Assembly (NCBI GenBank): GCA_964640225.1
Contig: CAZXFI010000003.1
Span: forward strand, 3,442-67,441
Length of the DNA stretch: 64,000 nt
DNA from: an uncultured archaeon
GTDB lineage: Archaea; Aenigmatarchaeota; Aenigmatarchaeia; PWEA01; JAGHBM01
Reading direction: 5' to 3'
Shown: positions 13,633 through 31,788 of the stretch, one piece after another
Position numbering within the stretch: position 1 is the first letter of the stretch
How the letters are laid out: each line of letters opens with the position of its first letter
Translations under genes and position numbers: made by a program
The notes under the pieces: generated by a model
What the model was told of the DNA's origin: nothing
Databases searched by the model: none
Seen by the model: the letters and a program-made list of their open reading frames with translations, nothing else

Positions 13633-14160
13633 TTATATTTTAGGGGAAGTATCAAAACAGTCCTCGCAAATCCACTGCCCGTCAACCTTCCTGAGATTCT
13701 CGCTGTAATTCCCGCAGAACTCGCAGACATCCCCTTCCATTTCGGAATCCATTTCCCTTCTATCAACAAGCGACTCCACCAGTCCGGGAGCCATTCTTAA
13801 TATGTCCCCGTCCGTGAGGACCCCCACAACCCTTTTTCCGTCAACAACGGGGAGCCTCTTGACTTTTTTTTCAAGCATTATCCTTATGGCCTCTATGACA
13901 TCCTCGTCCACCGGGGTTGTCACCAGCTTTTTTGTCATAACATCCTTTGCCTTTATTTTTTTCAAATCCTTGTTGGGAATTATTACTCTTTTCACAAGGT
14001 CTTCCGAGGTTATGAGTCCGAGAAGCCTGTTCTTATCGCAGACCAGCATGGAGCCAATGTCCTTTACCTTCATCTTTTTGGCCACCTCTGTAACTGGCTC
14101 ATCTGGGCCGACTGTTATGATAACCTTTGTCATTGCATCTTCCACTGTTATTTTGGACAT
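13633..14160 (-). CDS. CBS-domain pair protein with a C-terminal Zn-ribbon
   Basis: Two CBS repeats plus CEFC...CEDC. Confidence 0.75.
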   Translation of the reverse strand: MSKITVEDAMTKVIITVGPDEPVTEVAKKMKVKDIGSMLVCDKNRLLGLITSEDLVKRVIIPNKDLKKIKAKDVMTKKLVTTPVDEDVIEAIRIMLEKKVKRLPVVDGKRVVGVLTDGDILRMAPGLVESLVDRREMDSEMEGDVCEFCGNYSENLRKVDGQWICEDCFDTSPKI

Positions 14161-14215
14161 CGTACCACAATATTAAATTTATTAAAGCATCTATTTAAAA
14201 TTAAATCGTGATTTT

Positions 14216-14587
14216 GTGACCAACTACGGGAAAGGCGTGGCTTTTGAATTCCGGGTAAGGGATTTGTTCAGGAAACTTGGCTATGTAGCAGAAAGAAAGG
14301 CGGCCTCTTCCCCCTACGATATTATTGTGATGAAGGATGGGAGCGTCAAGTTTCTTGTTGACGCAAAAAAAACCTCCCAGAAAGACAAAAAATTCATTTA
14401 CATCAAACAGGCGGACCTGGAAAAAATAATAAAGGAATCCAAAAAACTAGGGGCAAGGCCACTTGTTGTTTACGGGTTTTATAGGTCTCCAATATTCGTG
14501 GACTTTCCGGGGAAACTGGTTAAAAAAAATGTGGCCAGGCTTACCGGAGGGATTAGACTGGAGGATTTTCTTTTATCCTGCGTATAG
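14216..14587 (+). CDS. hjc: Holliday junction resolvase Hjc-like PD-(D/E)xK nuclease
   Basis: The GxAFExxVRDLFRKLGYVAER...DII...VDAKKT pattern is collinear with archaeal Hjc. GTG start. Confidence 0.6.
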   Translation: MTNYGKGVAFEFRVRDLFRKLGYVAERKAASSPYDIIVMKDGSVKFLVDAKKTSQKDKKFIYIKQADLEKIIKESKKLGARPLVVYGFYRSPIFVDFPGKLVKKNVARLTGGIRLEDFLLSCV

Positions 14588-14730
14588 GTCGCGTTGTTTT
14601 ACAAAGAAGCCCATTAAAAACAAAAACACCCCCGGGACTGACACAACCCAGGAAAGGGGGATTTTATACAAAAAATACAAAAACAACCCCAAAACCACGA
14701 CTAAAAAACCAATAATCATCCATCTGTAGT

Positions 14731-15450
14731 TCATCCAAATCCCCTCTTTAACATTCCCTTGAGCTCTGTTAAATTTCTTGTTTTAGTCATCGCCAGAACT
14801 ATTCCCTCTATTCCCGCTATCCTCCTGGCCACCTCGTCCACCTTTTCTGGCCCATGGAGTATTACGAGTGAGGGTTTTAGGTTTGTCACCTTTATGGCAA
14901 CCATTGAAGACCTTCCTGTGGTTACGTTTGAGAATATAAGCGCCCTGTTGGTTGTAAACCCGTATATTTTGACCAATTCCATCGGGGTTAGCTCCATTAT
15001 GGCTTTCATTGAATCAACAAGCGAGTAGCCGTATATCTCGTTCTCTAGTAAATCTTCCCTTGAGACCACCATGCAGTTTGTTTTCTCGCAAAAATCCCCT
15101 ATTGAAACAGGGTATTTAAATTCCTTTATATCAAGAATGCTTGAAAGTAGAAAATTTTCTCCTGAAAGCGTGTAAAACTCCCTTAAAAATTCGGCTCCCT
15201 TCCTTTCGGAAATTTTTATAAGGGAATTGACTATGTTGTTTATTATTTTTATTCCCGGTGAAGACCTTCTGTTGCTTTCATAATCAGATATTACAGAAGG
15301 TGTGACCTTCATTTCATCTGCAATTTCCTTTTGAGAAACTTTGAAAATATTTCTCCATTTTTTTATAACCGAGCCTGGTTTTTGGGACAGGACTATTTCT
15401 CCACAAATTCTCTTAACTAAATTCTCTTTTATTAAATCTTTTTCATTCAT
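14731..15450 (-). CDS. HTH (XRE-type) transcriptional regulator, archaeal COG1395-like
   Basis: HTH motif VSQKEIADEMKVTPSVISDYE followed by a C-terminal domain. Confidence 0.55.
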   Translation of the reverse strand: MNEKDLIKENLVKRICGEIVLSQKPGSVIKKWRNIFKVSQKEIADEMKVTPSVISDYESNRRSSPGIKIINNIVNSLIKISERKGAEFLREFYTLSGENFLLSSILDIKEFKYPVSIGDFCEKTNCMVVSREDLLENEIYGYSLVDSMKAIMELTPMELVKIYGFTTNRALIFSNVTTGRSSMVAIKVTNLKPSLVILHGPEKVDEVARRIAGIEGIVLAMTKTRNLTELKGMLKRGFG

Positions 15451-15727
15451 AAGTTATTTATTGTCGAAATAAATATAAATAAATGTCGTATATACCCTGA
15501 GACGTTTGTTTCTTATGGAGATTTTTTATTTTTAATAGGTTTATAATATAATATATAACAGTGTTATATCATAGTTAGTAGTAGTAATAAGAAATTCCAA
15601 AGGAAATAGAGGGGTGTCTTATTCACACCCCTTTATTTCACGTGCAAATTCACACCCCTTTATTTCACGTGCAGATATGTATTTATAAATTCAAACTCTA
15701 TATGAAAGAAAGGGGGGTTGGTTTCAT
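15451..15727. promoter_or_regulatory. Candidate replication origin (oriC) upstream of orc1/cdc6
   Basis: A ~130 bp AT-rich stretch (candidate DUE, 15.47-15.60 kb) is followed by ORB-like elements of the form dyad CACGTG + GAAA + G-string. All lie immediately 5' of orc1/cdc6. Confidence 0.55.
15622..15673. repeat. Tandem 25-nt ORB-like elements. An inverted half-site lies at 15611-15631.
   Basis: TTCACACCCCTTTATTTCACGTGCA occurs twice with a 27-bp period. On the bottom strand it reads CACGTGAAATAAAGGGGTGTGAA. GGGGTGT / ACACCCC form an inverted repeat. Confidence 0.6.
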
Positions 15728-16915
15728 TTGCAAAAATCTTTGGAGTCTATTTTCAATGGTTATGTAAATAAAAGAAAGATTTTTACTAACAAAAAAGCAA
15801 TAACAATTTCCTACAAACCCAACGAGCTTCCACACAGAAACAGGGAAATAGAGAGCGTGGCTTCAATTTTAGGCCCAAGTTTAAGTGGGGAGAAACCCTC
15901 CAATGTATTTATATTCGGGAAGCCCGGAACAGGCAAAACTGCCGTGATTCACCTAATATCAAAAAAACTCACTAAGATGAGCAAAAAAAACGTGGGCCTG
16001 TTTTATCTTAATTGTAAAATGAGGAATGTGGCCGACACGGAATATAGGCTAATCGCGCAGCTTGCAAGAGAGCTCGGTGAGTTCGTTCCTGTCACAGGTC
16101 TCCCAACGGACCATGTTTACAACCTGTTCTTCAAGGCCTTGGACAAACGAGGCGGGGTTATTATTCTAATACTGGATGAAATAGACGTGCTTGTTGAAAA
16201 AATAGGGGACAACTTCCTTTATAACTTGACAAGAATAAACGAGGAGCTCAATAACACCCAGGTAAGTATAGTGGGAATTTCAAACAACCTGTCCTTCACG
16301 AACGACATGGATCCCCGCGTGAAGTCTTCACTTTCTGAGGAGGAGCTAATATTCCACCCTTACAATGCAATACAGCTGCAGGATATTTTAAGAAAGAGGT
16401 CCGAGGGGGCCTTCAAGGAAAACACCTTGGAGCCGGGTGTGATAGAAAAGTGCGCGGGACTGGCTGCCCAGGAGCACGGGGACGCCAGGAGGGCGCTGGA
16501 CCTGCTCAGAGTGGCCGCCGAGATAGCGGAAAGAGAAAGTTCGGAAAGGGTTATGGAGAAGCACGTTGACATGGCGGAGTCAAAAATAGACAAGGACAGG
16601 ATAGTAGAAATAGTAAAATCCCAACCCAGGCAGAGCCAGGCAGTCTTGTGGAGTATAATGAAGACAGGAGGCGAGATTCAGACGGGGGATATATTTTCTG
16701 TTTACGAAAAAATATGCGCCGAAAACGGCCTCAAGCCCCTGACGCACAGAAGGGTTTCCGACCTGATAGCGGAGCTGGATATGCTGGGAATAATAAGTGC
16801 CAGGGTTGTCAGCAAGGGCAGGTATGGAAGGACGAGAATAGTCAAGATGAGCCTCCAGGATTCTCTTTTAGGCAAAATAAGGGAAATACTGCAGACAAAA
16901 TATTACTTCCAGTGA
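15728..16915 (+). CDS. orc1: Orc1/Cdc6 replication initiator
   Basis: AAA+ Walker A GKPGTGKTA, Walker B LDEIDV, and a C-terminal winged helix. Confidence 0.85.
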   Translation: MQKSLESIFNGYVNKRKIFTNKKAITISYKPNELPHRNREIESVASILGPSLSGEKPSNVFIFGKPGTGKTAVIHLISKKLTKMSKKNVGLFYLNCKMRNVADTEYRLIAQLARELGEFVPVTGLPTDHVYNLFFKALDKRGGVIILILDEIDVLVEKIGDNFLYNLTRINEELNNTQVSIVGISNNLSFTNDMDPRVKSSLSEEELIFHPYNAIQLQDILRKRSEGAFKENTLEPGVIEKCAGLAAQEHGDARRALDLLRVAAEIAERESSERVMEKHVDMAESKIDKDRIVEIVKSQPRQSQAVLWSIMKTGGEIQTGDIFSVYEKICAENGLKPLTHRRVSDLIAELDMLGIISARVVSKGRYGRTRIVKMSLQDSLLGKIREILQTKYYFQ

Positions 16916-16919
16916 TTTT

Positions 16920-17927
16920 ATGGATTTGGTTAAGGATTTTTTAGACAAGGGAATTCTGCTGTCCCCGGGGGTGGTAGGCAAGGTTAAAAAAAAGGACCTG
17001 AAGGAAATAACGAAAAAAATGGGCAGGAAAGTCGTGGTAACGGGAGAGGTATTGTGCGCGGTCAGGGGAACGGGAGTGGAAATATTAAGAGAGCATAAGA
17101 AACTGGATGAAACAAAAAGAATAACGGAATTTGTTGATTTTTACAACAAAAGGTTTGAATTTTTGCGCGGATTGCTGGAGGAAAAACTGGAAATTGAGAA
17201 AATAACATCCATAAACAAACTTAACACAGGCAGAGTCACGGTCATAGGAATGGTAAGGGAAATAAATGATAAGGGGTTTAAGATAGAGGACTCCACGGGT
17301 TCTGTTTTTTGCAGGTCAGATGAAAGGCTTTTGGAGGACGAGGTTGTGGCGGTTGCGGGGAATTTTGACAGGAAAGACCTCTGCGCCGAAAAAATAATCT
17401 ACCCGGACATACCCCTTAACAAAAAAATAAATCTGACGAAGGAAGACTGCCGTGTGTTGTTCACAAAAAAACTCACCAAGGAGCCTTCACATGAACCTTC
17501 ACATATATTCACGTTTGATTTAAACCCGGAAATTTTGGGGAGCATTTCAGCAGAAATTATAACGAAAAAAGAGGGCCTGAAAAAAGGCCCCGGAAGGACA
17601 GGCCTTGGGCTACCATCTCTCTTGGAAATAAGCGGGGTGAAGATTTTTGTTTTTGAGAACAAGGAAATGGAAGAAATAAAGAAGAAAACGGAAATCAAAG
17701 ACGAGAAAAATCTAATTACCTCGCTCCTGAAAAGAAGGCACCTGCTTCCGCATGTTTACACGGAAGGCGACCCGTATCTGCTGAAGGATATACCAGACAT
17801 AATATTTTTCTCCGGGGGAAAGGAAAGTTTCTTCCTGAATTACAAGGGGGTTTCAATCGTTTCGGTTGCAGGAAAGGAAAGCTTTTTGGTAAACCTGAAA
17901 ACAAGGGATTATGAGGAGTTGGAATGA
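16920..17927 (+). CDS. Truncated DP1-like (PolD small-subunit / B-subunit-like) protein. It keeps the N-terminal domain, OB fold and C-terminal tail but lacks the phosphoesterase catalytic core.
   Basis: The MDLVKDFLDKGILLSP N-terminus and OB segment (IEDSTGSVF...VVAVAG) resemble DP1. The C-terminal LLKRRHLLP...DPYLL..IPDIIFFSGG...YKGVSIVSVAG is collinear with the DP1 tail RHVAP..DP..L...PD..HMGHVH...YRGV.LVNS, with the His residues replaced. Confidence 0.45.
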   Translation: MDLVKDFLDKGILLSPGVVGKVKKKDLKEITKKMGRKVVVTGEVLCAVRGTGVEILREHKKLDETKRITEFVDFYNKRFEFLRGLLEEKLEIEKITSINKLNTGRVTVIGMVREINDKGFKIEDSTGSVFCRSDERLLEDEVVAVAGNFDRKDLCAEKIIYPDIPLNKKINLTKEDCRVLFTKKLTKEPSHEPSHIFTFDLNPEILGSISAEIITKKEGLKKGPGRTGLGLPSLLEISGVKIFVFENKEMEEIKKKTEIKDEKNLITSLLKRRHLLPHVYTEGDPYLLKDIPDIIFFSGGKESFFLNYKGVSIVSVAGKESFLVNLKTRDYEELE

Positions 17928-18535
17928 ACATAATATTTGACCTCGGGGGCGTTTTAATAACAAACGACTGGGATAAAAAAAACACGGGGTTTTTTGCGGA
18001 GTTTATAGGGGTTTTCGGGGTTTCCGAGAAAGACATGGACCGGGGGTGGAGAGCCGGACACGATCCCTTCTTTACGGGTAGGATAAGCGAAAACGAGTTC
18101 TGGAAAATATTTTTTAAAAAGGCAGGCCGCGAAGAAGTCTCGGAAGAAGACCTTGCCCGCGCCAAAAAAATTTGGAGAAAGCACCAGAAACAGGACAAAA
18201 ACATGCTGGCTCTTTTGAGGAAACTGAAAAAAAACCACATTTTGGTAGGACTTACCAACCTAGGAAGGGAGTGGGCCGACTATAAGATAAAAAAATACAA
18301 ACTAAACAGGTATTTTCAAACGGTTTTCATTTCCGGGTACCTGGGAGTGGCCAAACCGGACCCGGAAATCTACAAGAAAGTACTCATGAAGCTCGGCGCC
18401 GAGCCAGAAGATTGCTTTTTTATTGACGACAGGGAGAGAAACACCGCCCCCGCGGAAATTCTGGGGTTCAGGACCGTTGTTTTTAAGAACCGGAAAGAAC
18501 TGGAAAAAAAACTGGCTGAAGTGGGTCTGCTGTAA
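17924..18535 (+). CDS. HAD-superfamily (subfamily IA-like) hydrolase
   Basis: N-terminal FDLGGVL nucleophile motif and a C-terminal FIDD motif. The ATGA overlaps the upstream gene. Confidence 0.7.
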   Translation: MNIIFDLGGVLITNDWDKKNTGFFAEFIGVFGVSEKDMDRGWRAGHDPFFTGRISENEFWKIFFKKAGREEVSEEDLARAKKIWRKHQKQDKNMLALLRKLKKNHILVGLTNLGREWADYKIKKYKLNRYFQTVFISGYLGVAKPDPEIYKKVLMKLGAEPEDCFFIDDRERNTAPAEILGFRTVVFKNRKELEKKLAEVGLL

Positions 18536-18600
18536 AACAATATGCTGCAGAACAAATTAATTTTTATAGCTTAATGTTCATTACTTTGTTGGGGTTGAAA

Positions 18601-21267
18601 ATGGAGTTGCAGGTTCTTGACGCCGATTACACGTTGCTTAATGAAAAACCAATAGTAAGAGTTTTCTGCAAGGATTCTACGGGGAAGGTTTTTTGTGTTT
18701 TTAAAAGGGGTGTGGAACCTTACTTCTATGCGCTGGGGGAAACGGATGAGATAAAGGAGAAACTCAAGAAATTTGAAGGCGAAATACAGAGAGTGGAGGA
18801 AGTAGAAAGGTTCCTTCCGGTGGGCTACCAGGAAAAGAAAACAAAAGTCCTTAAAATAACCAACAGAAACCCCTCCAAGGTTCCCGCCATAAGGGAAACC
18901 CTGGGGTGCAGGGTTTTTGAGGCGGACATTCTTTTCAAGTACAGGTTCTTCTCGGACACAGGCATAAAAGGCATGAACTGGATAGAAGTTGAGGGAGATT
19001 TTGTCAACACAAACACGGTCTCTTGTACGGGAATTGAAGCAAAAAAGATAAAACCAAAAAACAAGGAGGAAAACATTCCTTTAAAAATTATGGCCCTGGA
19101 CATAGAGACAGAGGCGCCGTCGGACAGGATGCCGGAGCCGGACAAGGACGCGATAACCATGATAAGCCTGGCCTTCTCGGAGGATTACAAAAAGGAGAAA
19201 GACATGGTTATAGTCTCAAAACATGTCATGCTCAGGGACGACCAGAAAAATAATACAATATGCACGGATAACGAGAAAAAAATGCTGGAAAAACTCAAGG
19301 ATGTGATAAACGACTACGACCCCGATGTAATAACAGGATACAACATACAGAACTTTGACATGCCCTTTATTGTCGGCAGGATGGACAAGTCCGGCGTCAA
19401 GAAGGACTTCGGAAGGGCAAAGGACAAGAACGTTTTTTGCAGCAAGTATGGTCCAATCTCCAACACGAACATGTCAGGAAGAATAGTCTCCGATTCCTAC
19501 CAAATTATCAAAAAAGACTTCTCCTTCAAGAGCTACAAGCTGGACAACGTAGCGGAAAAGCTTCTGGGCAAGAAAAAAATTGACATAAGCTACAAAGATT
19601 TTGAAAGGCTGTGGAACGGGAGAAAAGAGGGTGTTCAAAAACTCATAGATTACGCGAGAAAAGACTCAATACTGGCGCTGGACCTTGTGAAAAAGAAGAA
19701 CCTCCTTGACAAGTACATAGCTCTTTCAAGGGTTTCCGGAATACTGCTTCAGGATGCTCTGAACGGGGGAGAGTCAATAAGAATAGAAAACGTTTTGCTC
19801 TCCGAGTTCAACAAGAGAGGCCTACTTTTCCCTCCCAAGCCAAGCGACAGGGAGGTTATGGAAAGGGCGAATAGAAGGGAGAAGAGCGGACTGAAGGGGG
19901 GGCTTGTTCTGGAGCCGAGGGCGGGACTTCATACCGACGGATGCATACTTGTTCTGGACTTCAAGAGCCTTTACCCAAGCATAATAAGGACTTACAATAT
20001 ATGCCCCACAACGCTTCTCAAAGAAAATTTGGATGTGGAATACAGCACTTCCCCGCTTGGAATAAAGTTCGTGAAAAGCAGCGTAAAGGAAGGCATACTT
20101 CCCCACGTGCTGGAGAACCTGATAAACCAGAGATCCCTTGTCAAGAAAAAAATGCACGAGGAAAGGGATGCGGACAAGAAGAGACTGCTTTACGCCAAAC
20201 AGTGGGCCCTTAAAATACTGGCCAACGCCTTTTACGGTTATACGGGGTATCTCAGGGCAAAAACCTACGTCATGGAGGTGGCCAACACAATAACCGCCTT
20301 TGGTAGGGAATTGCTGCAAAGAACCAGAAAGGAAATAACCGACATGGGTTACGAGGTTGTATACGGGGACACGGACTCGGTTTTTGTTAAAGCGGACACC
20401 AAGGACCTTGAAAAGGCGTACAAGCTGGGAAACCGGATAGTAAGCAAGATAGACTTACCCGGAAAACTTGTCCTGGAATTTGAGAAAATATTCCGCTCGT
20501 TTCTTATATTGACCAAAAAAAGGTACGCCGGATGGAGCTTTGAGAAAAACAACGGCGACTGGTCGGACAAAATAGAGATGAAGGGAATAGAAACTGTGAG
20601 GAGGGACTGGCCAGACCTTGTAACGGAGAGCATGAATGTGGTGCTTAACATAATCCTGAAGGAAGGCAACGTCAAAAAGGCGATAGCCTACGTCCAGGGA
20701 GAGGTTGACAAGCTCAACGCGGGAACAGTGAACCTTAAAAAGCTCGCGGTCACAAAGAGCATAACAAAAAGCGTGGACAGGTATGACGGCATGCTGCCGC
20801 ACATAGAGCTGGCCAAAAAGATAAGTCAGAGGAATCCCTCCCAGACTCCTTCCCCGGGGACCAGGATATCTTACATCATAATAAGGGGCAACCAGATGCT
20901 GAGTAAGAGAGCCGAAGAGCCCGAGTACATAAACGAGCACAAGCTGAACATAGACTCCTGTTATTACATAGAGAACCAGCTTTTGCCCCCACTTGAAAGA
21001 ATATTTTCCGTGATAGGCGTTGACAAGGGAGAGCTTATGGGCAAGGGGAGGCAGTGCAACCTGAAGGACATGCTGAAGCCCGCCAAGAGAAACCATAAAA
21101 TAGAGATACCCCCGGAAAAAATTATCGTAAAGTCCCCCGAAGGATTCGTCTGCAGGAACTGCAACAAGAATTTCAGAAGGGTCCCTCTTGTGGGTAGGTG
21201 TGATTGCGGGGGAGAGATTCTGGCCTTTGCTCGGGGGAATATGGGTTTTCTTATAAAACTAAATTAA
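18601..21267 (+). CDS. polB: Family B DNA polymerase (PolB) with a C-terminal Zn-ribbon extension
   Basis: Exo I LDIETE. Pol motifs DFKSLYPSII, KILANAFYGYTGY, YGDTDS. A ~85-aa tail after the thumb carries CRNC...CDCGG. ATG 18601 is preferred. Confidence 0.85.
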   Translation: MELQVLDADYTLLNEKPIVRVFCKDSTGKVFCVFKRGVEPYFYALGETDEIKEKLKKFEGEIQRVEEVERFLPVGYQEKKTKVLKITNRNPSKVPAIRETLGCRVFEADILFKYRFFSDTGIKGMNWIEVEGDFVNTNTVSCTGIEAKKIKPKNKEENIPLKIMALDIETEAPSDRMPEPDKDAITMISLAFSEDYKKEKDMVIVSKHVMLRDDQKNNTICTDNEKKMLEKLKDVINDYDPDVITGYNIQNFDMPFIVGRMDKSGVKKDFGRAKDKNVFCSKYGPISNTNMSGRIVSDSYQIIKKDFSFKSYKLDNVAEKLLGKKKIDISYKDFERLWNGRKEGVQKLIDYARKDSILALDLVKKKNLLDKYIALSRVSGILLQDALNGGESIRIENVLLSEFNKRGLLFPPKPSDREVMERANRREKSGLKGGLVLEPRAGLHTDGCILVLDFKSLYPSIIRTYNICPTTLLKENLDVEYSTSPLGIKFVKSSVKEGILPHVLENLINQRSLVKKKMHEERDADKKRLLYAKQWALKILANAFYGYTGYLRAKTYVMEVANTITAFGRELLQRTRKEITDMGYEVVYGDTDSVFVKADTKDLEKAYKLGNRIVSKIDLPGKLVLEFEKIFRSFLILTKKRYAGWSFEKNNGDWSDKIEMKGIETVRRDWPDLVTESMNVVLNIILKEGNVKKAIAYVQGEVDKLNAGTVNLKKLAVTKSITKSVDRYDGMLPHIELAKKISQRNPSQTPSPGTRISYIIIRGNQMLSKRAEEPEYINEHKLNIDSCYYIENQLLPPLERIFSVIGVDKGELMGKGRQCNLKDMLKPAKRNHKIEIPPEKIIVKSPEGFVCRNCNKNFRRVPLVGRCDCGGEILAFARGNMGFLIKLN

Positions 21268-28305: not shown

Positions 28306-31300
28306 GTGTGGTTTGTGGATTCAACTAAATGTTTACCGCTAATTTTCATACTGCTCCTGCCTGCCCTTATTTCAGGCGGCACGATTTGGAGCACCGACTC
28401 GGATTTCAACGCTTCCTCCCCTGTTTACATGAACTTTACGAACTCCTACAACGGGAACACAACCCTTGGCGTAAATTCCACGGGAATCCTGGAAGTGGGA
28501 AACGTCACGAACACGGTGAGGGCCAACTACACCCAGCCGGCCTCGGGCTGGACCTACGGGCAGTCAAGCTACGACTCATCTCTCTGCGGCCTGGGCTCCA
28601 ACAACTTTGATTTCAGGGTAAGGAACGGCACCGGTTGTTATAACGTAACGGAAAACCTTACCGGCACATCATGGGTTGCCCTGGAAAGAATTGAGGACAA
28701 CTGCCCGCCCGGCAGATACTACGGCCTGATTAACATAACCAATTCCACGCTTGCGACTGATTACGCCAACGTCACCGTGGTGATGAACCTTCCCATAAAC
28801 GAGGACAACTCGCTCAACACCACTCTGGGAATCGGCCAGTTCAGGGGAACCATGTCCACCACAACCAAGACCTATCACATTTACTACATAAACACGAGCG
28901 ACGTGGAGAACTCCACGTCTGTTACCGTGAAGAACCTTGCCCCGGACGTCTTCCTTTTTGACCCGAGCGGAAACCTTAAGGCCAAGAACATACTGGGCTC
29001 GGGACAGAGCCTTGTTTACCAGTATCTAACAGGCGAGGCCCTGGGAATAGCTGTCTTTGACAACTCCTCCACCGCGGCCTACTCAGGCCTGGCCCTGTTT
29101 TCAACCCTGAACGCCACAAGTTCCGGACAGCAGGTTTTATTTTTGGACTTCGGCGAAATGAGTGCATCCGAAAAAAACACGACCCAGCTCAGGCTGGAAA
29201 ACGAGGGAGCCCTGACGCTTTCTTCCGTTTCCCAGGGAAGGGAGCTTTACCACACGGATACGCGCCCCGGCAGCGGACCGGAAACCTTCGGCTTCCGCGT
29301 TCCCGATTTCGCTACCGAGGTAAGGGCGGAGCTCAGATGGAACGGAAGCTCCAACTACACCGTCAGGCTGTACAAGCCAGACGGCACATCCGTGTCAAAC
29401 TCCTCCGGCAGTTACATAAATTCAAATATAACCGGCGTGGAACAGGAGGAGTATGCCGAATACTCGGGGATAGTGGGCTTTGCCAACGCCGGCCTGTGGA
29501 CCGTGGAAGTCGTGAACAACACGAACGCCACTAATTCATACGTTCTTGACTTCAAGGTGTGGATGGACCCGGCCGAATGGGTGGACACAAACTACAGCAC
29601 AAAAACTTTCAACTCAACCACCTCTCCGGAAGACGTGGAGTTAAACTTCACGGTTCAGAACTACACACTCAGCGGCCAGTACAACGGCTCCCTGAGCTAC
29701 ACCAGCAGCGCCGGTGCAGTTGTCAGAGTTCCGTTCGGGACGAACGTCACCGCGCCCGAGCTTTTCGCCAACGGCACGTTCAGAAATTCCACGATAACCG
29801 TAAACGAGAACAGGGGATTCAACAGGACCGTAAATTTGAACGTAACCGTCAACAACACAGGCAACCAGGAACTTTCCGTTTCCCATTCCAATTCTTCTTT
29901 CCTGAACCACACAGCAGTCCCGTCCAACTACGTGGAGCTGTCCTACGTCCCGGTGTCTTCAATAGCTTCGGGAGAGTCAGACACGCTGGAGATAACCCTG
30001 ACAATAGACACCACGAAAACAAACAACACGGCCGGAACCTACGAGGGATGGATATACCTGAACGATTCGGACGCCCGTCCCTACACCGGGTTCAACCTTA
30101 CCCTGCAGGTCGTGCTTTCCAATTCCCTCAGCGTGCTCATAACCGACCTGGTAACGGAGGACGGGGACTCGGAAATAACCAGCAGGTCCTCGGACGAGAA
30201 CTTCACCGTGGAGGCAAAGGTTTTCTACGCCAACGGCACCTCAACCGGCGGAAACCTGACAATCTCAAACTTCGGCTCAGTGAGGCTGAGAAACCAGAAC
30301 GTGACCTACTGGATTCCCGATTCCGGATACTTTGACATAGAGGCGCATGACGATGGACTTTGGCAGGGAGGCTTCGGCGAATACTGGATAAACGCCACGT
30401 TTGAAGGGGACACAGACTGGCCCGGCGGCTACTTCAGCGTGTATCTCTCGGCCAACAAGTCTGCCACAGGCGCGACACTTTCCGGAACCAACAGCAGCGG
30501 CACGCTGACTATACCCGGGGAGGGTATGTGGTTCACGGAGCACGAAACCGTGAGCAATTTTGACGAGGTCGGCGAAACGCAGTACTACGTGATAAAGGTC
30601 ATAAATTACGGCACCGAAGACGCTACTTCCCAGATTAACCTGACCCTGACGGGGGGAGACTGCGACGACTACATAATTCTGGACGTGGAGAACGCCACCT
30701 CAGGGTGCGGGAGCGACGACGGAGGGGCGCAGTTTGACATAGACATAGACCCCGGGGACACGTGCTACTTCACCTGGGAAGTGAAAGTCAAGGACTCCAT
30801 CAACACGGATTACGTGGTGGACGAGGAGGACTGCCTGATTTCTGTGAAAACTGACGAGAATAGGTTTACAGTTTTACCGCAGGACTACTTTGACGTATAC
30901 ATATCCGAGGGAAGCTCTGGCGGGAGCGACGACGATGACGACGACGAAAACGAGGACATAGACATAACCGAGTATCCCTCATCCCTGACCATCACCCAGA
31001 ACGAGACCGATGTTTTTGAAATAACCGTGGAGAACGACGGGGACACGGACGAGAACAACATAGAACTTACCATCACGGGTATACCCTCAAGCTGGTACTC
31101 TTTCAGCCCGTCAAACCTTGACCTTGACTCCGGGGACGAGGACGAGTTTGACGTGACGCTGGAAGTTCCGGAGGACGGGGAAGTCAAGAGCTATTCGCTC
31201 ACCTTCAAGGCAGACAACGGCGATGTCTCGGATTCCAAGTCCTCCACGCTGAAAGTCCTTCCGTGCGAGGAGGGGAAGGAAAGTATAAACCTTACTTACA

Positions 31301-31788
31301 CCGGTTATATGGAAAACTACACCCGGCTTTTGGATAGAATGAGAAACATGAGCTTGGAGGGAAAGAACGTAACGGAACTCAACTCCACCATGCAGGACAT
31401 CAAGTCAAAGCTGGACGCCATGCTGGGCTACATGGAAGACGATGATTATTTCAACGCGGCCCAGATTATTGATGACATAGAATCGCTTTTCACGGCGGCC
31501 GAGGCGCAGGCCTATGAGGAAGCAGGGGAAGAAACCGTTGATATAATACAGGAGGCAACCAGCTACGTGTGGCTTGTTATAGGCGTTGTGATAATAATAA
31601 TAGCAGGCTTCCTCGTATACATGTTCATGCCGCCACCCAAGGACTCCCACAAGGTAAAAAAATTCAAATACGCTCCTCCGGGCAAGGGCGACACGCTTGG
31701 CAAAAAAATAGACAAGCAGATAAGGAGGTTGAAGACAAAGCTGAGCGACTCTAAAAAGAAGGAAGGATTTAGATGGAAGAAAAAATAA
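28306..31788 (+). CDS. Giant (1160 aa) secreted cell-surface glycoprotein, S-layer protein candidate
   Basis: Signal peptide. Dozens of N-x-S/T sequons. An acidic DDDDDDENED stretch. C-terminal TM anchor with a basic tail. Confidence 0.6.
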   Translation: MWFVDSTKCLPLIFILLLPALISGGTIWSTDSDFNASSPVYMNFTNSYNGNTTLGVNSTGILEVGNVTNTVRANYTQPASGWTYGQSSYDSSLCGLGSNNFDFRVRNGTGCYNVTENLTGTSWVALERIEDNCPPGRYYGLINITNSTLATDYANVTVVMNLPINEDNSLNTTLGIGQFRGTMSTTTKTYHIYYINTSDVENSTSVTVKNLAPDVFLFDPSGNLKAKNILGSGQSLVYQYLTGEALGIAVFDNSSTAAYSGLALFSTLNATSSGQQVLFLDFGEMSASEKNTTQLRLENEGALTLSSVSQGRELYHTDTRPGSGPETFGFRVPDFATEVRAELRWNGSSNYTVRLYKPDGTSVSNSSGSYINSNITGVEQEEYAEYSGIVGFANAGLWTVEVVNNTNATNSYVLDFKVWMDPAEWVDTNYSTKTFNSTTSPEDVELNFTVQNYTLSGQYNGSLSYTSSAGAVVRVPFGTNVTAPELFANGTFRNSTITVNENRGFNRTVNLNVTVNNTGNQELSVSHSNSSFLNHTAVPSNYVELSYVPVSSIASGESDTLEITLTIDTTKTNNTAGTYEGWIYLNDSDARPYTGFNLTLQVVLSNSLSVLITDLVTEDGDSEITSRSSDENFTVEAKVFYANGTSTGGNLTISNFGSVRLRNQNVTYWIPDSGYFDIEAHDDGLWQGGFGEYWINATFEGDTDWPGGYFSVYLSANKSATGATLSGTNSSGTLTIPGEGMWFTEHETVSNFDEVGETQYYVIKVINYGTEDATSQINLTLTGGDCDDYIILDVENATSGCGSDDGGAQFDIDIDPGDTCYFTWEVKVKDSINTDYVVDEEDCLISVKTDENRFTVLPQDYFDVYISEGSSGGSDDDDDDENEDIDITEYPSSLTITQNETDVFEITVENDGDTDENNIELTITGIPSSWYSFSPSNLDLDSGDEDEFDVTLEVPEDGEVKSYSLTFKADNGDVSDSKSSTLKVLPCEEGKESINLTYTGYMENYTRLLDRMRNMSLEGKNVTELNSTMQDIKSKLDAMLGYMEDDDYFNAAQIIDDIESLFTAAEAQAYEEAGEETVDIIQEATSYVWLVIGVVIIIIAGFLVYMFMPPPKDSHKVKKFKYAPPGKGDTLGKKIDKQIRRLKTKLSDSKKKEGFRWKKK

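Follow-up and report, generated by a model that had tools for sequence, protein, structure and literature searches.

The subject of this report is a 335-aa protein encoded in a 64,000-nt stretch of DNA from an uncultured archaeon of the Aenigmatarchaeota (contig CAZXFI010000003.1; this whole stretch is called the window, and all positions, feature coordinates and motif counts refer to its full length). Its open reading frame (ORF), which starts with ATG and occupies positions 16920-17927 of the plus strand, lies between a gene for the replication initiator Orc1/Cdc6 and one for a family B DNA polymerase (PolB). With a probability of roughly 80%, we read the product as a descendant of DP1, the proofreading subunit of PolD, that serves the replicative PolB as a non-catalytic, B-subunit-like second subunit, in a docking geometry that we infer by analogy. 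Homology, fold, loss of the active site, a DP2-like C-terminal domain (CTD) on PolB and a conserved gene linkage are established for this family. A reading made earlier from the letters of the window alone (the sequence-only reading) had proposed an inactivated DP1 as the accessory of a zinc-tailed PolB, and the fold, the active-site loss, the similarity of the PolB tail to the Zn-III domain of DP2 and the adjacency of the two genes in 20 of 20 loci agree with that proposal. Its statement that the arrangement had not been described fails, as it was published in 2020 (PMC7544198) and again in 2025 (PMC12680538).

By both sequence and structure, the 335-aa product is DP1-like. Searched as a single sequence, it matched the NCBIfam DP1 model NF003118 at E = 8.7e-27 and DP1 chains of the PDB over the OB region, with scores below the curated cutoffs (94 versus 445 bits for the NCBIfam DP1 equivalog and 14 versus 29.1 bits for Pfam PF04042). 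A family profile matched the DP1s of Thermococcus kodakarensis and Pyrococcus abyssi in the PDB at E = 7.6e-32 to 5e-28, with two independently significant blocks, one comprising the OB fold and the start of the phosphoesterase (PDE) domain (independent E-value 1.4e-20) and the other the C-terminal half of the PDE domain (5.8e-8); the same profile also matched human Pol delta subunit 2 (E = 3.5e-4). The protein begins with a helical domain of the DP1 N-terminal (DP1N) type (residues 1-52; 16920-17075, plus strand) that carries the motif FLxKGxLLSP and was matched to the N-termini of full-length DP1s with an hhalign probability of 96.4% (E = 1.2e-9). There follow an OB fold (residues ~101-165; 17220-17414, plus strand) with conserved EDxTG and PDIP motifs, and a trimmed, apparently inactive calcineurin-like PDE domain (residues ~172-335; 17433-17924, plus strand), so that the two-domain architecture of OB fold and PDE is present and both regions are significantly similar to DP1. 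Conservation in the C-terminal PDE half takes the form LLKRRHLxP...DPYLL..IPDI...NYKG. An AlphaFold2 model built from 51 homologues was confident (pLDDT 89.6, pTM 0.81), and in a Foldseek search with this model the best 50 matches were all DP1s or eukaryotic B-subunits, with E-values down to 3e-19. The three DP1 hallmarks named by the sequence-only reading (N-terminal domain, OB fold and C-terminal tail) thus hold, and the Foldseek and profile comparisons with DP1 and B-subunits that it had asked for returned significant matches to both.

The nuclease site has been lost. We aligned the protein with eight full-length DP1s, which showed all five motifs and served as controls, and scored the motifs of functional DP1 (DxH, GD, GNHD, H and GHxH) and their eight metal-ligand positions. 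Motif I (SDxHxGS) is replaced by FTKKL, motif II (GDxVDG) by FTFDLN, motif IV (YHG) by VFEN and motif V (GHxH) by SGGKES. Deleted outright are ~50 residues after motif II, the entire GNHD segment (motif III) and ~17 residues near the C-terminus, and the total trimming relative to full-length DP1 amounts to ~100-125 residues. The window protein therefore lacks the functional-DP1 motifs, retaining none of the eight ligand positions (0/8). The residues that it has in common with active DP1s (E123, D124, T126, G127, D140, P162, D163, R273, H274, D284, P292, D293 and Y308) include none of the catalytic ones. Within the family, conservation is highest in the OB fold (0.39) and in the C-terminal PDE half (0.41) and lowest (0.21) across the stretch that once held motifs I-III, which indicates that constraint now acts on the scaffold and no longer on catalysis. 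It had been claimed that a core of ~200 aa was missing and that the catalytic His residues were replaced; the second part is correct, the His and Asp ligands being replaced or deleted, whereas the core itself is present. Judged from the alignment, the PDE domain is trimmed, not deleted, and is predicted to be inactive, as in a eukaryote-type B-subunit.

The proposed partner, PolB (18574-21267, plus strand; 897 aa as listed; DNA_pol_B E = 7e-107, exo1 E = 2e-41), has intact exonuclease motifs (ExoI DIET, ExoII NIQNFDMPF, ExoIII YARKD) and intact polymerase motifs (PolA DFKSLYPS, PolB KILANAFYG, PolC YGDTDS) and should therefore be able to polymerise and proofread alone. In the PDB it matched PolB of P. 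abyssi (Thermococcales) at E = 4.7e-108 and, about equally well, the catalytic subunit of human Pol delta at E = 1.3e-104, a pairwise hint that it may belong to the Delta-like clade. What ties it to DP1 is its tail, which extends ~65 residues beyond the thumb and ends in a single CxxC-x12-CxC ribbon (21142-21264, plus strand; C860-x2-C863...R868 R869 x P...C876-x-C878). In 13 PolB tails the four Cys are invariant and the RR pair is at least 90% conserved; a CTD profile made from these 13 tails matched DP2 of T. kodakarensis (E = 4.1e-9, residues 1128-1164) and of P. abyssi (E = 3.2e-7) in the PDB, with no comparable match to other proteins. The aligned element, FxCxxCNxxFRRxPLxGKCxxCGG, lies at DP2 residues ~1120-1160, and the PolB tail also matched positions 1041-1068 of the DP2 model NF003103 (E = 1e-3). 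On these matches the Zn-ribbon is homologous to the Zn-III domain of DP2, and the PolB partner carries a C-terminal Zn module of the DP2 Zn-III or eukaryotic CysB kind. In PolD, Zn-III uses its KxRRxP loop to dock on DP1, in the acidic groove that separates the OB fold from the PDE domain, and a Zn-III peptide of 20 residues has nanomolar affinity for DP1 (PMC6355029). Two further observations concern PolB itself. The annotated start at 18574 (MFITLLGLKMELQ...) is possibly too far upstream, and Met10 (18601) could be the true start because homologues align only from residue ~8-10. At one related locus (L016, 10919-14848), PolB measures 1309 aa, its polymerase domain being interrupted at about residues 606-1013 by an intein with a LAGLIDADG homing endonuclease, and keeps the Zn CTD. 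A regular-expression search for a canonical PIP-box (PCNA-binding) in the DP1-like protein and PolB found none, a result uninformative on PCNA binding.

The linkage of the two genes was assessed in 20 independent loci (the window and the related loci L001, L003 and L006-L022, without duplicates). In all 20, at DP1-like identities down to 26%, no more than 1.6 kb separates the DP1-like gene from one encoding a PolB of ~880-900 aa, which is usually on the same strand and often 2-8 nt downstream. The Zn CTD was confirmed in 16 loci in which the PolB C-terminus was read; in L008 and L017 the evidence for it is a tblastn match, and the tally leaves out L018 and L019 (in L019 PolB is incomplete). 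In 15 loci the DP1-like gene is immediately preceded by orc1. In the sub-lineage of L003, L020, L021 and L022, orc1 is not adjacent, and PolB still lies 2-8 nt downstream; PolB is therefore the constant partner. Where orc1 is absent upstream, an ORF of ~85 aa, winged-helix-like in its weak matches, precedes the DP1-like-PolB pair (L003 9726-9983; L020 211-468; L022 5636-5893; L023 1658-1915; L021 882-1118), with 67% mean column identity. A comparison with the winged-helix domain of Orc1 did not support its being a detached copy of that domain (hhalign probability 0.07%), and its product may be regulatory or another protein associated with the polymerase.

In the window, orc1/cdc6 (15728-16915, plus strand; 395 aa; NCBIfam NF001625 (ORC1) E = 1.2e-147, Pfam Cdc6_lid and Cdc6_C) stops 4 nt before the DP1-like start, and the ORF call together with the family matches of the flanking genes bears out the position between orc1/cdc6 and polB that had been assigned to the ORF. 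Upstream of orc1, a repeat search identified a cluster of elements resembling archaeal origin recognition boxes (ORBs) at 15591-15674 (no strand), made up of three copies with the core GAAATA[G/A]AGGGGTG. Two of these are tandem 27-nt repeats and the third is inverted and preceded by a TTCCAAAGGAA dyad. The three copies compare with 0.12 expected, none occurs elsewhere in the 64 kb, and the motif is also found upstream of orc1 in L007, L008, L011 and L012. The cluster sits in an AT-rich intergenic stretch (GC content 0.379 for 14001-16000) and, from the sequence of its repeats, is likely a replication origin, albeit a putative one. Because the repeats look like ORBs, the claimed order oriC-orc1/cdc6-DP1-like is reasonable, and the three motif matches upstream of orc1 speak for it. 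It recalls the Pyrococcus order oriC-cdc6-DP1-DP2; the orc1-DP1 order we take to be ancestral in Euryarchaeota.

This setting invites the alternative that survives best, namely that the protein acts mainly at the origin with Orc1, as an OB-fold single-stranded DNA-binding or recruitment factor co-expressed with the initiator. We consider this unlikely: orc1 is not adjacent in L003, L020, L021 and L022, in which PolB remains 2-8 nt downstream, and the OB fold of DP1 and B-subunits is not known to bind single-stranded DNA independently in these complexes. A role at the origin and a role as polymerase subunit are not mutually exclusive.

A second alternative is that the protein still serves a DP2 encoded elsewhere, its proximity to PolB being inherited synteny. 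The presumed ancestral orc1-DP1 order is in line with this, as is the scope of our DP2 search, which took in the 64-kb window and the flanks of the 20 related loci, short of the whole genome. Within that scope, no DP2 was found. Two large ORFs were examined as candidates and rejected: the 1160-aa ORF at 28306-31788 matched only an NPCBM-associated (NEW3) domain and is probably a large surface protein, and an 899-aa minus-strand ORF is alanyl-tRNA synthetase. The proposal that DP2 has been replaced at this locus fits these results and matches the published absence of DP2 from the phylum, which two independent surveys report for Aenigm(at)archaeota. Moreover, a nuclease-dead DP1 would leave PolD without proofreading, and the DP2 docking module is now on PolB. 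We thus hold service to a distant DP2 to be very unlikely.

A third alternative sees the ORF as a decaying relic of DP1 left after the loss of PolD, either a pseudogene or a functionless, drifting gene, and the family at large bears most directly on this. A word-indexed search found ~30 short relatives (300-360 aa) at identities down to 26%, the named ones annotated as "Candidatus Aenigm(at)archaeota hypothetical protein". An exhaustive profile search of 1.84 billion cluster representatives gave 450 matches at E <= 1e-30, and the best 150 of these 450 were all 242-412 aa in length; at E <= 6e-53 the family thus counts no fewer than 150 representatives of short-form clusters (50% identity). The closest relative with available DNA shares ~58% protein identity, and its synonymous sites are saturated. 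The loss of all catalytic residues, the deletion of ~100-125 aa, the low conservation of the former motif I-III zone and the graded decay within the family are what a relic would show. However, the reading frame is uninterrupted, full-length relatives extend down to 26% identity, the at least 150 clusters are all similar in length, the invariant residues D124, P162, R273, P292 and D293 persist, the predicted fold is confident and compact, PolB is adjacent in 20 of 20 loci, and an interaction in the yeast two-hybrid assay has been published. The pseudogene or fragment that the sequence-only reading had named as refuting its proposal is therefore strongly disfavoured, and we regard a relic as most improbable.

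In a motif census of 178 family members, 104 kept none of the eight ligand positions (median length 339 aa) and ten, 376-398 aa long, kept six or seven. Among the long forms are P0058, P0061 and P0067 (376-398 aa) and the protein at L022 5907-7088. P0058 keeps seven of the eight positions, has a weak Metallophos match and is encoded 2 nt upstream of a PolB carrying the same Zn CTD, which suggests that a CTD-bearing PolB was already in place when the nuclease site began to decay. Some hydrolytic activity may, to go by these retained motifs, persist in part of the family; that the trimmed PDE hydrolyses through other residues, acting for instance as an additional nuclease or phosphatase of a non-canonical type, for which the members with 6-7 of 8 ligands and the weak Metallophos match of P0058 might be cited, is scarcely credible for the window protein, since it has 0/8 ligands and no motif III segment, no conserved His/Asp cluster has taken their place, and the sole conserved His, H274, also occurs in active DP1s outside the five motifs. 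We suggest tentatively, at less than even odds, that the family forms a continuous decay series, always with a Zn-CTD PolB, from ~390-aa forms with 6-7 of 8 ligands to ~300-340-aa forms with none. If so, and should the long forms be active nucleases, PolB holoenzymes in some Aenigmatarchaeota would proofread at two sites, and the family would preserve in living form the disarming and minimising of a eukaryote-type B-subunit after the switch from DP2 to PolB, with the window protein as the minimal scaffold needed for CTD docking, and the series could help to date and order the inactivation steps.

In the second-subunit reading, which we prefer to these alternatives, a descendant of DP1 would have kept its N-terminal domain, its OB fold and a slim PDE sandwich while losing every metal-binding residue. 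PolB would handle polymerisation and proofreading, and the Zn-III-like module fused to its C-terminus would dock on the DP1-like protein by placing its RRxP loop in the conserved acidic groove between OB fold and PDE domain, as suggested by analogy with PolD. The result would be a two-subunit holoenzyme like those of eukaryotic Pol delta, alpha and epsilon with their B-subunits. The free DP1-like N-terminal domain may in addition tether the polymerase to a CMG-type helicase via GINS, a link that we infer from indirect homology: Thermococcus DP1N binds Gins51C and yeast Dpb2N binds Psf1, and L7 and L12 of T. kodakarensis DP1 are critical (PMC9023282). Residues L8 and L13 of the window protein align with L7 and L12, in an alignment block that is itself not significant.

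Several observations weigh against this reading or parts of it. For the GINS link, a profile of the N-terminal domain had no significant direct match among PDB sequences, which include solved DP1N, and DP1N homology therefore rests on the profile-profile match. The PolB CTD is shorter than those of DP2 and eukaryotic polymerases: instead of two motifs (CysA and CysB) and a helical bundle, every tail that was read has a single CxxC...CxC in its last ~40 residues and no helical bundle. The aenigmatarchaeal CTD has likewise been described as short and "degenerate", with a different predicted structure (PMC12680538). Given the short CTD, the docking interface may differ from that of PolD. In two distant relatives, L013 (12397-14142) and L014 (12390-15035), PolB is on the opposite strand, convergent and ~1.5 kb away; co-transcription is therefore not universal, though the linkage is kept. 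Finally, the absence of DP2 applies to the window and flanks named above and not to the whole genome.

The remaining features of the window can be described briefly. The four genes orc1/cdc6, DP1-like, HAD and PolB form a compact cluster, all in one direction, with the ORB-like repeats upstream. The HAD-IA family phosphatase (17924-18535, plus strand; 203 aa; Pfam Hydrolase E = 2e-15; TIGR01509) has a start codon that overlaps the DP1-like stop (ATGA), and a spacer of 38 nt separates it from PolB. Beyond the window, a HAD gene was seen in this position just in the two closest relatives, L006 and L008, and it is therefore a lineage-specific insertion outside the conserved module; one possible role is the "house-cleaning" of the nucleotide pool, with expression alongside the polymerase. 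Genes for an Hjc resolvase and for CBS-domain proteins are found a short way upstream of the replication cluster, both in the window (13633-14587) and in the distant relatives L003 (6560-8245) and L022 (1933-3631), so the wider neighbourhood is conserved across the phylum. Scanned over its whole length, the window yielded neither a tRNA gene nor a match to any Rfam family at the gathering threshold. Two stretches of low GC content occur at 48-50 kb (0.41) and 56-58 kb (0.39).

Combining a family B subunit, a DP2-derived zinc tail and a disarmed DP1, the arrangement is the nearest analogue that prokaryotes offer to the eukaryotic replicative polymerases and bears on the origin of Pol alpha, delta and epsilon, a significance already set out in 2020 and 2025; the window is one more example of it and no discovery. 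Structural studies of the interface between CTD and B-subunit may profit from the compactness of its very small B-subunit. The eukaryotic B-subunits (Pol delta p50/Pol31, Pol alpha p70/Pol12 and Pol epsilon p59/Dpb2) are larger, with solved chains of ~390-560 aa, and are only weakly similar in sequence (E = 3.5e-4 at best), and the CTDs of their partners comprise CysA, CysB and a helical bundle, whereas the window PolB has a single motif. The crenarchaeal PolB1-PBP1-PBP2 complex of Saccharolobus is likewise an archaeal family B replicase with small accessory subunits; PBP1 and PBP2, however, are not known to be related to DP1 and B-subunits, nor is PolB1 known to have a DP2-like Zn CTD. In comparison with PolD of P. 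abyssi and T. kodakarensis, a family B polymerase here takes the place of the double-psi-beta-barrel DP2 as the catalytic partner. The small subunit, shorter by ~100-125 aa, has none of the eight nuclease ligands, and the PolB tail has no counterpart to the helical bundle of the DP2 CTD.

Two published archaeal systems come nearest. Baldrarchaeia (Asgard) are the other archaeal lineage for which a loss of DP2 with retention of DP1 is reported, and their PolB3 with a DP2-type CTD binds DP1 in the yeast two-hybrid assay; their CTD is full-length and DP2/eukaryote-like, in contrast to the shorter, "degenerate" CTD of Aenigmatarchaeota (PMC12680538). For Aenigmarchaeota, Kazlauskas et al. (2020, Nucleic Acids Research, PMC7544198) described an inactive DP1 and a CTD-bearing B6 PolB, with most sequenced genomes lacking DP2, and proposed that the inactive DP1 group could serve to model how eukaryotic B-subunits originated. 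The 2025 study in Nature Ecology & Evolution then reported, from AlphaFold3 and yeast two-hybrid assays, that DP1 binds PolB-DP2CTD in Aenigmatarchaeota and Baldrarchaeia, and attributed the two-motif "B6-aenigma2" sequences to Baldrarchaeia contamination (PMC12680538), with which the single-motif window PolB is consistent. The main text of the 2020 paper makes no mention of gene adjacency or of PDE shortening, and neither the decay gradient nor the operon-like linkage was found described in the main texts consulted; the orc1-DP1-like-PolB linkage and the decay gradient may thus be modest additions to the published system. On tail type, the window PolB fits B6-aenigma1, and the homologous loci are labelled Candidatus Aenigmatarchaeota. 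The described "Aenigma_GB_GCA_002789635-like" DP1 with its B6-aenigma1 PolB belongs, by the names of the homologues, to the same phylum and shares the inactive DP1 and, for the window and flanks searched here, the failure to find DP2. We thus conclude that the window locus is a member of the described Aenigmarchaeota system, from which it differs in nothing essential.

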